Source: Octopus vulgaris (taxonomy: Eukaryota). From it: 64,000 nt of DNA. The translations under genes and the position numbers were made by a program. The stretch spans positions 160,332,001-160,396,000 of the forward strand of contig OX597817.1 in assembly GCA_951406725.2 (NCBI GenBank). Direction: 5' to 3'. The notes beneath the pieces were generated by a model. The model saw nothing but the letters and a program-made list of their open reading frames with translations. It made no database searches and had not been told where the DNA came from. Every line of letters starts with the position of its first letter. Positions within the stretch are counted from its first letter, which is position 1. Positions 4,495-63,344 of the stretch are shown in pieces.

Positions 4495-4764
4495 ATATTA
4501 TTAGTGAAATGAAGAAATGGAGCTGAACCAAGATTGAACAGAAATCGTTTTATTTCATTCTACACGTGTTTCGAAAGGCACAATTTACCAAAATCCGATT
4601 GAATAATGAGACCATATTGTGTCTTTCTCTTCAGGAAGAAATAGGAAATCCGTTGGAAAAAACAAAAACAGAAAAGAGGCGGAGCAAAACAAATCGAACT
4701 AGGCTCCTAAGAGCCCATGGCCAAACTGTTTATCAGCTCCATTTCTTCATTTCACTAATAATAT
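4495..4764. mobile_element. Small element in (TA)n with perfect 32-bp inverted repeats, carrying a hammerhead motif
   Basis: 4495-4526 (atattattagtgaaatgaagaaatggagctga) is the exact reverse complement of 4733-4764. Confidence 0.7.
4553..4641 (-). ncRNA. Type I hammerhead ribozyme motif with long stem II
   Basis: Minus strand: uuc-CUGAAGA-gaaagacacaau-(loop)-auugugccuuuc-GAAA-cacgug-UA/gaa. Stem II is 12 bp with one mismatch, and stem III is palindromic (cacgug). Confidence 0.75.
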
Positions 4765-5071
4765 TAAAATTCAATTATCCGCACCAACGCACGGTTGCAA
4801 CACCATATGGTTGTACCTCCAACCGTGCTGTCTTCTGCTGTGATTTTTGCTACCAAGGTATCGGTTAAACTTTTGATTAATCTGCTACAAGATTATTCAT
4901 CTTTCTATTTCACATATATATATATATATATATATATATATATATATATATATATATATATATAGAGAGAGAGAGAGAGAGAGAGAGAGACATACACACA
5001 CATGGTGTATATATATATCTATACACACACACACACACACACACACTCACACATATATATATAGAGAGAGA

Positions 5072-5250
5072 TACTTGCATAGCAAGTGACCTGATCTGAG
5101 ATCGTGTGCTGGAACGAAAACAATTGCAGCGTAGGTGTTTATAAGCCATTTAAGAAACACACAAAATCCGTTAGATTCACTTCAACATTTAAATTTTATT
5201 TGTCAAAATATTTTCGTCACTTTGAGACCGCAGCCAGTTCACTGATAAAA
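5072..5250 (-). mobile_element. Diverged single-arm copy of the element at 63010-63344
   Basis: Aligns by eye with 63010-63190 (tgatctgagatcgtgtgctg...tttgtcaaaatattttcgtc...gttcactga). Confidence 0.75.
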
Positions 5251-5305
5251 TATATATATATATATAGAGAGAGAGAGAGAGAGAGAGAGAGAGAGAGAGA
5301 GAGAG

Positions 5306-5517
5306 ATTTGGTTTGCAAGATTCTTTATGTGAGTTCGTGTGTTGAAGCACTTTCTGTTGTGTCTGGGGAGAGTTATTCTCTTTTGGTGCCTTATAATTTA
5401 ACACACACAACGGTAAAATTTCACGAAAACTTAAGAAAAATAAAGAAGGAAATGAGTGGAAATTTTACCGGTGAGTATGTTAAATTAAAAAAGAATGACC
5501 CTCCCCAGACACAACAG
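5306..5517. mobile_element. Fold-back element, same family as 43488-43753
   Basis: ctgttgtgtctggggagag... and ...ctccccagacacaacag are inverted. It shares gatttggtttgcaagattctttatgt with the reverse complement of 43728-43753. Confidence 0.7.
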
Positions 5518-5699
5518 TATATATATATATATATATATATATCAAATCCACTCACAATACCTTGGTCGGCTCCGGGTTATTATAGAACACTTGATGAAGG
5601 TGCTATGCAGTAGGACTGAACCCCCGAAGTCATGTGGTTGTGAAGCTATACCTGCACCTACACACACATAATATATATATATATATATATATATATAAA

Positions 5700-6039
5700 G
5701 GGTAAAGACCCCCTTCGTTCATGAATGACCATGGGATTGCACCTAGAAAGTTACCCTCCTAGACACAAGTCTGGGCAAGGTTGTTTATGGAAGACCAGCA
5801 GTCGCCCATGCATACCAGCCTCCCCTCTCCACGCCACCAGTGTTATCCAAGGGAAAGGCAAAGGTCGATACAGCTTGGCACCTGTGACGTCGCAGCTCAT
5901 TTCTACAGCTGAGTGAACTGGAGCAACGTGAAATAAAGTGCTTTGCTCAAGAACACAACACGCAGCCCGGTCCGGGATTCGAGCTCACAACCTCAATATC
6001 GTAAGCTCGAGCTCTAACCACTGAGCCATGCGCCTTCAC
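5700..6039 (-). mobile_element. tRNA-derived SINE, family D (CORE-like ttgagcaa.gcacttta.ttcacgttgctccagttcactcagctg)
   Basis: Reverse complement of the copy at 49857-50195; tRNA-like head with A/B boxes. Confidence 0.75.
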
Positions 6040-59976: not shown

Positions 59977-60506
59977 TACCGTAAATCCTCGAGTATAATC
60001 CGCATTTTCCCCCAAAATTCATAGGTCAAAATCCCTAGTGCGTACTATATACGAGGTTAAAAAGGAAAAAAAAAAAAATTTCTAAGCAATGTCCGAGTCT
60101 CTATTTGCTGTCCGGCAATGTTTATTCAGATGCATTTTGTGATGTCGGGCGCGAAAATACCTTAAGTTAAGCCTGAAAGCAATGAAGTCATAAAAGAATC
60201 ATCCATAACTTGCAGTTAGCAACATTTATTAAAATAAAAGTATTCAGAACACAGAATAACATGTAACAAAAATAATTTGCAAGCATATTTACATTCCCAT
60301 ATAACAGTTAAGAACATCACCATTATTGTATTACGCATGCACGGAAGTGTTTGTTCGACTAGGTGCTGCTGGCTTAATTACGCTCGACTCAGGCTAGAGA
60401 AGGGGTGCGTATTATACACAAGGTTTAGGTTTTTCAGAAGTACAGCCCCCTAAAAATCCCCTGCGTATTATACTCAAGGGCGGACTATACTCGAGAAATT
60501 ACGGTA
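59977..60506. mobile_element. Tc1/mariner-superfamily (pogo/Tc2-like) MITE
   Basis: TA-flanked TIRs taccgtaaatcctcgagtataatccgc / gcggactatactcgagaaattacggta, with subterminal tgcgta.tata repeats. Confidence 0.8.
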
Positions 60507-61942
60507 ATCAAATAGTGAGGTCGGTTACAAATGGTGGATAGACAGAAGCATTAGCGTGTCGGAGTAAATATATAGTATCTATGTACGTCCAGTTCCATTC
60601 TCAGTTAAAATCCCACCGAGTTCAGCTTCGCCTCTCATCCTTGTGAATTTATAGTTTTATTCTTATGTTGATCGTGTCTAATTAAGTGCCACGTTTGAGA
60701 AGCATATCCATATTTTTCTCATAACTATTCTTTATGATGTCATGCGGTGACGTAGAAAGGCTTTTCTCAGTGTCCGGGAGACAAAGGCGTTTTTGGTGAA
60801 CCCCAGCTTAATTAACCGGTATAATAGGCCCATGGCATGGAAAGTTTGCGCTTAGTTATCCGTGCGCCGAGGGTGATTCCTCCACACACTTTGGCGGAAA
60901 CTTAACAGTAGCTTGCTTACCAACCACATGGTTCCGGGTTCAGTCACACTGCGTGGCACCTTGGGTAAGTGTCTTCTACTATAGTCTCGGGATGACCAAA
61001 ACCTTGTGAGTGGATTTGGTAGACGGAAACTGAAAGAAGCCCGTATATATGTATGTATATATATATATATATATATATATATATATATATATATATATAT
61101 GTGTATGTATGTGTGTGTGCGTGCATATGTTTGTGTGTCTGTTTTTGGTCCCCCACCAACATCGCTTGACAATCGATGCTGGTGTGTTTACGTCCCCGTA
61201 ACTTAGCGGTTCGGCAAAAGGGAACCGATAGAATAAGTACTAGGCTTACAAAGAATTGCTCGACTTAAGGCGGTGCTCCAGCATGGCTACAGTCAAATGA
61301 CTGAAACAAGTAAAAGAGTAAAGAGTAAAAGTGTATATGTATCTGTGCGCGCGCGCGCGTCTTCGTGTCTGTGTTTGTCCCCTTATCACCGCTTGACAAT
61401 CACTTTTGACGCGTTTACATCTCCGTAGCTTAGCGGTTCGGCAAAATAGATCGATGGAATAAGTCCCAGGCTTAAAAAAAAAAAGGAGAAAATGTACTGG
61501 GATTGATACATTCGATTAAAAAAAAAAAAAATTAAGACGGTTGGTCCAGCATGGCCGCAAGCTAATGACTTAAAACTAATAAAAGATACCGGAAGTTGCT
61601 ACAATAAATGCTGTGGATTAAATTAATGACATTCCGTGGAAGAGTTTCTTGTAACACCATCAATGCATTTCCTTCTCTCCTCGCTACTCCACGGCGCCAT
61701 CGGCCATCATAGGTGGTTAAAGGAGATTCAACTGATTACGGAGTGTTGCTATATTGGTGCTGATATTGATATGCTCGTGGGGGCGGTGGTGGTAGTGGAT
61801 GATGGTGGTAATGGTGGCGGTAGGCGTTGGCGAGGTGGTGTTTTGAGGTGATGGTGGATTTGGTGTCACGAAGGAGAACATATAGTGTCATGAACAATTT
61901 TTCCGATATATTTGGCACCTATCTTCCTCCTCTTTCTATCAA

Positions 61943-62088
61943 CCTTCTTCTTCTTCTTCTTCTTCTTCTTCTTCTTCTTCTTCTTCTTCTTCTTCTCCTC
62001 CTTCTTCTCTTCTCCTTCTTCTTCTTCTTCTTCTTCTTCTTCTTCTTCTTCTTCTTCTTCTTCTTCTTCTTCTTCTTCTTCTTCTTCT
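61943..62088. repeat. (CTT)n microsatellite
   Basis: Seen directly in the sequence. Confidence 0.95.
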
Positions 62089-62562
62089 CTCAAGTACGCG
62101 TGTGTATATATATACTTACACACATACACGAACTAAACAGCACACATTTATGTATGTGTGTTCGATTTCGTTTTATATATATATATATATATATATAGAT
62201 AGATATAGATATGTATACACACACACAGAAAGAGAGAGTGGGGGGCAAATCGAAAATTTAAAATTTAAAATCACAAATAACAAATCAACAAAAGTCAAAA
62301 AAAACGTACACATAGAATGTTTAAGCTCGACGATCATATATATATATATATATACACACATACATACACAAACAGAAAACAGATACATATGTCTGTCTGT
62401 CTGTCTGTCTGTCTGTCTGTATGTATGTATGTATGTATGATGTATGTCTGTCTGTCTGTCTGTCTGTATGTATGTATGTATGTATGCATGTATGTATGTA
62501 TGTATGTATGTATGCATGTATGTATGTATGTATGTATGTATGTATGCATGTATGTATGTATG

Positions 62563-62818
62563 TAGGAGGGTTGTATCGAAAGTAATGGAGGCAACACTTT
62601 TGTATAAACTGATGAACATCGTTCAAATTGCAAATGTTGGTAAAAAGAACTTTTGCTGTTCTTCCTCATTGCAGGTAAATAACGGGTTCCAAGCAGAAGC
62701 AACGTGCCAACATTGAGTTCTTGACAAAGGAAGGATTGCAGGCTCTTCGACATCCACAAAAGGTAAACAGGTCGTTCACGGAGATGACACAATTCACAAG
62801 AGCAATTTGCACAGATGT
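62563..62818 (+). pseudogene. Mariner 5' end relic (TIR plus N-terminal HTH)
   Basis: Start ta.gagggttgtatcgaaagt is TIR-like. QRANIEFLTKEG...IHKR...VHGDDTIHKSNLHR resembles QRAVIEFL.KEG..IH.RL..VYG. Confidence 0.7.
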
Positions 62819-63063
62819 GGTAAGTAGCTTGATTACCAACCACATGATTTCTGGTTCAGTCCCACTGCGTGGCACCTTGGGCAAGTATCTTCTACTATAG
62901 CCTCGGATCGACCAAAGCCTTGTGAGTGGATTTGGTAGAAACTGAAAGAAACCCGTCGTATATATATATATATATATATATATATATATATAGAGAGAGA
63001 GAGAGAGATGTACTCGCATAGCAAGTGATTTGATCTGAGATCGTGTGCTGAAACGAAAACAAT

Positions 63064-63344
63064 TGCAGCGTGGAAGGTGTTTATAAGCCATTTAAGAAAC
63101 ACACAAAAGCCGTTCGATTCACTTCAACATTTAAGTTTAATTTGTCAAAATATTTTCGTCGCTAAAATCCGCGACCTGTTCACTGACAAAAATCCGTGCT
63201 GCATTTCAGCACGGATTTTTGTCAGTGAACAGGTCGCGGATTTTAGCGACGAAAATATTTTGACAAATTAAACTTAAATGTTGAAGTGAATCGAACGGCT
63301 TTTGTGTGTTTCTTAAATGGCTTATAAACACCTTCCACGCTGCA
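63064..63344. repeat. Perfect 138-bp-arm palindrome with a 5-nt loop
   Basis: 63064-63201 is the reverse complement of 63207-63344 as read by eye; the loop is cattt. Confidence 0.9.
63218..63267 (+). ncRNA. Hammerhead fold with a G3:C8-swapped core (mirrored on the minus strand at 63141-63190)
   Basis: uuuguca-GUGAACA-g-gucgc/ggauuuua/gcgac-GAAA-auau-UU/ugacaaa. Confidence 0.6.

Follow-up and report, generated by a model that had tools for sequence, protein, structure and literature searches.

Solo pseudo-long terminal repeats with predicted hammerhead ribozymes, from several families of Penelope-like elements, in the genome of Octopus vulgaris

A 64-kb stretch of the 2.8-Gb Octopus vulgaris genome (OX597817.1:160,332,001-160,396,000; hereafter, the window) contains seven families of short repeats associated with predicted hammerhead ribozymes, named here by their positions in kb: F1 (4.5), F2 (5.1/63.0), F3 (5.3/43.5), F4 (7.2), F5 (8.2/34.3/43.9), F6 (11.5/11.9/13.3/28.3) and F7 (11.6/20.7/26.6). 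By sequence, F1, F2, F3, F5 and F7 are pseudo-long terminal repeats (pLTRs) of distinct families of Penelope-like elements (PLEs) with a reverse transcriptase (RT) and a GIY-YIG endonuclease (EN), and F6 is probably another, judged from one locus. Confidence that the repeats belong to PLEs is high. The fuller proposition, that five families and likely a sixth are the pLTRs of separate coding PLEs, inserted at TA tracts, and are likely cDNAs of the RNA leader with its predicted hammerhead, is considered likely. This class of element is already known; what is new is the map of families to open reading frames (ORFs), two core variants not found in the literature searched, and a signature at the 5' ends. 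A preliminary description of the window had proposed solo pLTRs or non-autonomous PLE derivatives, and the first of these stands: the families are solo pLTRs of autonomous PLEs, joined to ORFs elsewhere, and not separate non-autonomous elements, F4 excepted.

Families were linked to ORFs by walking upstream from the repeats at loci fetched from elsewhere in the same genome (L numbers), and the PLE identity of the ORFs rests on motifs and homologs. The attachment to PLE ORFs that the preliminary description had suggested looking for genome-wide was found in all five families. F2 lies 0.9-1.4 kb downstream, in sense orientation, in 28 of 30 GIY-YIG loci, and one copy of its ORF has an open frame of 1025 codons (L196:2971-6045). 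An ORF of ~900 aa with DKT, CxxC and CxH motifs is ended by F1 in all five extended loci (L293-L297). The F3 ORF was present upstream in 22 of 30 loci found through the untranslated region (UTR), with F3 downstream in 21/30; F5 comes after an ORF of Neptune type in 7 of the 30 loci obtained through its own UTR, and F7 follows a separate, Hydra-type ORF in 3 of 7 extended loci. For F6 there is a single ORF-linked locus, L442, with an endonuclease 56% identical to that of F5. In L198, a partial-tandem F2 element (4726-9175), the repeat runs straight into the N-terminus of the ORF, and L446 does likewise for F3; such continuation marks a true pLTR, comprising RNA leader, ribozyme and first codons. 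At L220, an F1 relative sits just ahead of its ORF. Two other candidate partners were rejected: the ORF beside F5 in L044 runs antisense to it and is part of an F1-like element, and one upstream of F6 and F3 in L339 belongs to another family. The L198 element and the 1025-codon frame suggest that F2 was recently active.

Comparisons with published systems refer here to the parts of each source that were covered. The partners of F2, F3 and F5 share a CX3-4CxxC linker and CCHH motif with Neptune/Nematis-type PLEs (Craig et al., 2021, PMC8557442), and those of F1 and F7 share with Hydra-clade EN+ PLEs the CxxC and CxH around E and N, together with DKT in the F1 partner and a CX5C linker remnant in the F7 partner (PMC8557442). 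On these motifs, the partners of F1 and F7 resemble the Hydra type, and the remaining ones appear to be of a linker-bearing kind (Neptune or Nematis). The EN+ PLEs also show (TA)n targeting, tails and inverted arms (PMC8557442). In the octopus, two fixed 3' termini, the bimodal ends that constitute the PLE tail, were found in F1, F2, F3 and F7, and an inverted, 5'-truncated arm occurred within ~600 nt in 26 (F7), 24 (F3), 13 (F2) and 6 (F1) of 30 loci. Pfam gave no family for three proteins searched, including L031 and the RT relic of the window. Young PLEs are also reported in an octopus repeat annotation, and ribozymes are unmentioned in the portion of its main text covered (PMC13282606).

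Flanking by (TA)n, another claim of the preliminary description, held for most families. Of 149 unselected 3' ends (F4 left aside), 92 have a TA run starting no more than 15 nt away, compared with 6% of random positions, which is ~10 times background; an abundant SINE-like repeat (short interspersed nuclear element; 7-9 copies in the window, at 9029-9516, 12858-13337, 20269-20736 and elsewhere) served as control and had TA at 15/60 and 7/51 ends (14-25%). The association was weak in F3 (12/30 unselected ends) and F4 (0/4). Different PLE families are nested in one TA tract at L009, L002, L144 and window positions 11420-12100 (F6-F7-F6), indicating that insertions cluster. Target-site duplications are masked by the microsatellites in most copies.

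The first look at the genome gave 654-1929 candidates per family. Across 40 arbitrary 10-kb regions (400 kb), 25 insertions were found, a density of 4.0 per 64 kb; extrapolated to the whole genome, this gives ~1.75 x 10^5 copies (Poisson range 1.1-2.6 x 10^5). With 16 insertions, the window is 4 times richer than these regions by family insertions and 2.4 times by descriptor matches, the 4-fold excess arising in part because the families were picked from the window; the two adjacent 10-kb stretches had no insertions. The density is a genome-wide trait, with a local, 2-4-fold enrichment in the window. More TA runs as the cause of this richness were rejected (78 versus 80 runs per 64 kb). Because 199 distinct motifs in 2.0 Mb of fetched loci, an enriched sample, fell into 26 stem/palindrome groups, more families than seven exist.

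The core variants of the preliminary description were all recovered and are family traits. Among distinct copies spanning the motif, the core was CUGAAGA in 29/29 (F1), GUGAACA with a G3:C8 pair in 68/73 (F2), UUGAAAA with U3:A8 in 45/57 (F3), CUGAUGA in 25/37 (F4), CUGUNGA with U6 in 77/92 (F5) and CCGAYGA with C4, including CCGACGA, in 78/100 (F7); in F6, 35 of 87 copies had CCGACGA and 33 CUGACGA, a C4/U4 split at a CpG. The canonical CUGANGA core is therefore kept by F1, F4 and half of F6 and departed from by F2, F3, F5 and F7. Stems I and II, the 3:8 pair, GAAA, the A15.1:U16.1 palindrome and H17 are present in the majority sequence of each of the seven families. Cores and stems are conserved within families; a lack of stem conservation had been named in advance as evidence to the contrary. 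Variation within families is post-insertion decay and uninformative on selection; covariation between families is informative. Between L156 and L188, C3:G8 changes to U3:A8 while stems I, II and III each change in a paired manner as well, and covariation was also seen between F1 and L220. The L156 element (2300-4763; G000:C1:20000001-20010000) is young and two-armed, an array of 359-nt units that holds seven canonical hammerheads.

These motifs resemble the minimal type I hammerheads of metazoan PLEs (Cervera and de la Pena, 2014, PMC4209133) in their short stem I, the extra base between 9 and 10.1, the palindromic helix III, an H17 that is often U, the covariant U3:A8 pair, and their occurrence as mostly single motifs, thousands per genome, with some opposite-strand pairs. 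They differ in copy number (~10^5 here versus thousands) and in the G3:C8, U6 and C4 cores, which are not in the alignment rows examined and would be missed by the published descriptor. No natural G3:C8 or U6 core was found in the literature searched, although a paper of 2017 in RNA Biology on dimers of PLE hammerheads may list them.

Folding recovers stem II in several motifs, which is no measure of activity. Helix III consists of no more than a palindrome, and cleavage would therefore require a second motif or the assistance of a protein (PMC4209133, PMC11167929). In the window, F4 alone has its two motifs in tandem on the same strand, whereas in the F2 and F7 pairs the two motifs face each other from opposite strands. 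Solos are for the most part probably inert, and the variant cores themselves are, on balance, predicted to be active. The alternative, judged unlikely, is that U6, C4 and G3:C8 mark dead ribozymes that ride along in thriving elements for which cleavage has become dispensable. Changes at positions 4 and 6 lower activity (PMC3088659, PMC7151607; A6C giving low and U4C reduced activity in the former), insertion by the green anole PLE Poseidon_Ac in vitro was unaffected by ribozyme mutants (PMC11167929), none of the copies begins at the cut site, and the F6 copies are split almost evenly between C4 and U4 at a CpG. However, both 3:8 swaps preserve pairing (G:C, U:A), and stems, GAAA and palindromes persist across unrelated families and covary in the related pairs described above.

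The 5' ends of solo copies form clusters just upstream of the ribozyme rather than a smooth series. Among unselected core-bearing copies, 10 of 13 F2 copies end at -21..-16, with none longer, as do 12 of 22 F6 copies at -81..-72 and ~16 of 38 F5 copies at -74..-59; F3 ends cluster near -14..-7 and F7 ends near -16..-14, mainly in selected sets. In F2, the upstream UTR is absent from 24 of 30 loci, which end within a few bases of the anchor, and five of the six others extend >150 nt. The F2 boundary is an A located 23 nt before the core: it is preceded by G in 10 of 12 short copies and in 0 of 18 long copies, which have C or T. Two other origins of 5' ends were considered. Copies beginning at the cleavage site were rejected, as there was zero pile-up there among 178 copies. 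A splice acceptor as the source of the F2 boundary was disfavoured, despite a branch-like motif and AG there, because the short copies have no common base upstream of the G. Contigs from four presumed-RNA runs cover F2 and are of a kind that cannot reveal starts or cleavage.

Copying of the cap gives an extra 5' G in other retroelements, and an extra G in short F2 copies is what would be expected for cDNA of a capped RNA start. Poseidon_Ac RT starts internally, near the ORF start, on uncut template, and its ribozyme is partially rescued by C3G/G8C (Frangieh et al., 2024, PMC11167929). A promoter internal to the pLTR is described in PMC2377424. In the simplest reading, internal priming near the ORF start combined with a promoter in the pLTR would mean that, when priming takes place in the upstream pLTR, nothing but the leader is copied. 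The endonuclease would nick (TA)n, and reverse transcription would begin at two internal tail sites. A start in the downstream pLTR would let RT run into the ORF and give long copies, and a start in the upstream pLTR or in a solo transcript would reach the RNA 5' end after 150-300 nt and give solos. The extra G of F2 would be the copied cap, the template would be uncut, sense, capped RNA, the ribozymes would cleave at a low rate, in dimeric form or aided by protein, and F4 would likely be a non-coding tandem passenger. This leader-copy mechanism is favoured to a moderate degree. Its boldest form, in which solos are full cDNAs of a capped PLE leader, forming ~10^5 start-site fossils, and young PLEs use natural G3:C8 and U6 cores, can be advanced only tentatively and may well prove too strong.

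No statement of such a model was found in the literature searched, and PMC3846280 argues for an antisense template, with solo pLTRs formed by recombination or deletion. Poseidon_Ac has, in common with the octopus families, a ribozyme near the ORF start, two tail-defining RT start sites, an AT-rich target and uncut RNA as template. It differs in clade, in that G3:C8 was an engineered rescue there and is a natural family trait here, and in that solos are untraced to the RNA start in the parts of PMC11167929 covered.

Several points weigh against the reading of the repeats as PLE leader copies. Start site, cap and cleavage are predictions from DNA sequence, and U6 and C4 are expected to slow cleavage (after PMC3088659). 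About 4 of the ten F2 Gs may instead mark where an inverted arm ends, F3 offers only 3 clean extra-G cases, and F5 and F6 ends are spread over a 15-nt zone with no G signature. Both of these last families have a single 3' terminus within the reference used, and inverted arms are nearly absent from them (1/30 in F6, 0/30 in F5); the F6 ORF link is one locus, with low-complexity homology of 71%. The search sets were picked by likeness to the window copies, so only small incidental sets are unbiased. Finally, R2 RT adds G, and also T, without a cap or template (PMC13000458), and F1 ends show no cluster, being spread from -92 to -500.

The last two points would also suit ordinary 5' truncation, in which copies primed in the downstream pLTR end just upstream of the ribozyme, where RT stalls at a hairpin or jumps at microhomology, with a non-templated base then added. 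Textbook PLE copies are 5'-truncated and inverted in this way (PMC8557442), and F7 junctions centre on a short palindrome. This origin is nevertheless judged rather unlikely: the F2 drop is stepwise, as the 24 loci ending at the boundary and the five extending well past it show, and the added base is G in 10/12 even though targets are mostly AT-rich.

More improbable is self-propagation, in which solos would be non-autonomous elements, SINE-like or retrozyme-like, transcribed from a promoter that they contain and mobilized in trans by the proteins of PLEs. A solo retaining the start site could be re-transcribed, and F7 hairpins have a common junction in ~20 loci, but the F7 query already contained that junction. 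Furthermore, F2 solos are 97-99.5% identical to the pLTRs of ORF-bearing copies, and junctions vary by locus in F2, F3 and part of F7.

Self-propagation does suit F4, which by sequence is an old, tandem, retrozyme-like unit. No ORF link was found in 30 loci, which gave two unlinked PLE matches. F4 occurs as single, direct-tandem or two-armed units; across 27 loci outside the window, motif pairs were direct in 2 cases and inverted in 10. Tandem non-coding units of 150-450 nt, each with a hammerhead, are present in the window array, L265 and L284. It shares with metazoan non-LTR retrozymes (PMC7229834; bioRxiv 10.64898/2026.07.22.740005) an AT-rich tandem unit of ~300-350 nt, a type I hammerhead and the lack of an ORF, and differs in being old (mostly 68-88% identity), mostly of one to two units, and often two-armed. 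In each window unit, a second hairpin followed by GAAA but lacking a core (7378-7410 and 7680-7712) is possibly a decayed hammerhead.

That the motifs are chance look-alikes in AT-rich microsatellite flanks is refuted for practical purposes, despite a relaxed, window-tuned descriptor and an Rfam search whose best 150 of 311 matches included no hammerhead (only microsatellite miRNA noise), because independent regions gave 21 matches versus 0-1 in shuffles and the motifs have a fixed place in PLE pLTRs. The strict descriptor required a paired 3:8, an optional extra base, stem II, GAAA, a palindromic helix III, H17 and a stem I of at least 3 bp. Tuned on window motifs, it matched 8 times in the window against a shuffle mean of 0.025 (maximum 1; 40 shuffles); the 21 matches came from the 400 kb of arbitrary regions, compared with 6 shuffles, and 7 of them belong to one tandem array.

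All seven families were recovered by self-BLAST of the window (Table 1), including the relationship proposed for two of them, F5 and F6, which are 72-77% identical around the motif. The claim of more than a dozen hammerheads needs qualification: 19 motif positions in the seven families were inspected, of which 8 pass the descriptor and 11 fail, mostly through damaged core, stem or GAAA, and the F3 copy at 5.3 kb, listed as a bearer, has no core. Likewise, the F7 copies at 20.7 and 26.6 kb both exist but belong, with both RT relics, to a single 5.8-kb tandem duplication (15151-26812; 98.2% identical), which has a 100-N gap at its joint (20937-21036) and may be an assembly duplicate. The RT relics reported earlier are real; the one at 22947..25841 matches the ORF family that has F3 as its pLTR, at 82-90% nucleotide identity, and stops at the linker. 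No GIY-YIG relic was found in the window by tblastn or by a custom hidden Markov model that recovered 6/6 control loci, Naiad-type endonucleases being outside the panel.

Table 1. Repeats, predicted hammerheads and PLE relics of the window
Feature	Position	Strand	Remarks
F1 solo pLTR	4499..4913	-	sense arm 4499-4730; inverted arm 4733-4913 with long terminus
F1 hammerhead, intact	core CUGAAGA 4628-4634	-	palindrome ACACGUGU; TA runs flank the F1 copy on either side
F2 solo pLTR, older copy (87%)	5066..5250	-	core GUGAACU; stem II damaged
F3 two-armed copy	5305..5517	.	truncated within ribozyme, without core
F4 head-to-tail array	7208..8000	+	~2.5 units of ~300-310 nt; retrozyme-like
F4 hammerheads, two, intact	cores CUGAUGA at 7448 and 7750	+	12-nt palindrome
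F5 solo pLTR	8232..8395	-	intact motif; U6 core CUGUAGA 8349-8355
F6 solo pLTR	11463..11624	-	core CCGACGA; stem I weak
F7 two-armed hairpin copy	11634..11869	.	hammerhead on each arm; short and long 3' termini at TA
F7 hairpin cores CCGACGA	11700-11706 (-), 11731-11737 (+)		
F6 solo pLTR	11891..12097	-	core CUGACGA; GAAA changed to GAAG
F6 3' fragment without ribozyme	13336..13411	-	absent from the preliminary description
PLE RT relic, duplicate copy	17067..19964	-	interrupted by LINE-like fragment; without endonuclease
F7 solo pLTR, motif damaged	20727..20893	-	duplicate of 26.6-kb copy
PLE RT relic	22947..25841	-	ends at RT-EN linker; attached to no hammerhead
F7 solo pLTR	26609..26772	-	core CCGACGA; palindrome with one mismatch
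F6 solo pLTR	28324..28535	-	intact motif; core CCGACGA 28442-28448
F5 older-subfamily copy	34273..34415	+	core decayed
F3 two-armed copy	43483..43757	.	cores UUGAAAA (stem II damaged) and UUGAACA (stem I lost)
F5 solo pLTR	43878..44075	-	U6 core CUGUCGA 43990-43996; stem I short
F2 young two-armed copy	63005..63348	.	copies from other contigs are 99-100% identical; microsatellites at its long and short termini
F2 young copy, two intact G3:C8 hammerheads	cores GUGAACA 63177-63183 (-), 63225-63231 (+)		

The long interspersed nuclear element (LINE) fragment within the RT relic (23626-24408, duplicated at 17748-18529) had no Pfam match and is presumably CR1-like. An 810-bp inverted repeat at 42601-43410 (88%) has CTGATGA with no descriptor match, and is probably a non-autonomous DNA element.

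The copying mode of PLEs is debated, an antisense template (PMC3846280) standing against internal priming near the ORF start as seen in vitro. An abrupt 5' boundary bearing a cap-like G would unite in vitro priming with the genomic solos, and leader copying would account for ribozyme-bearing stubs far outnumbering coding copies. Because F2 has both near-identical copies and a 1025-codon frame, assays of a natural G3:C8 ribozyme could include the protein that its own family encodes. If the leader-copy model is true, the solos show that the template is sense, uncut RNA in vivo.

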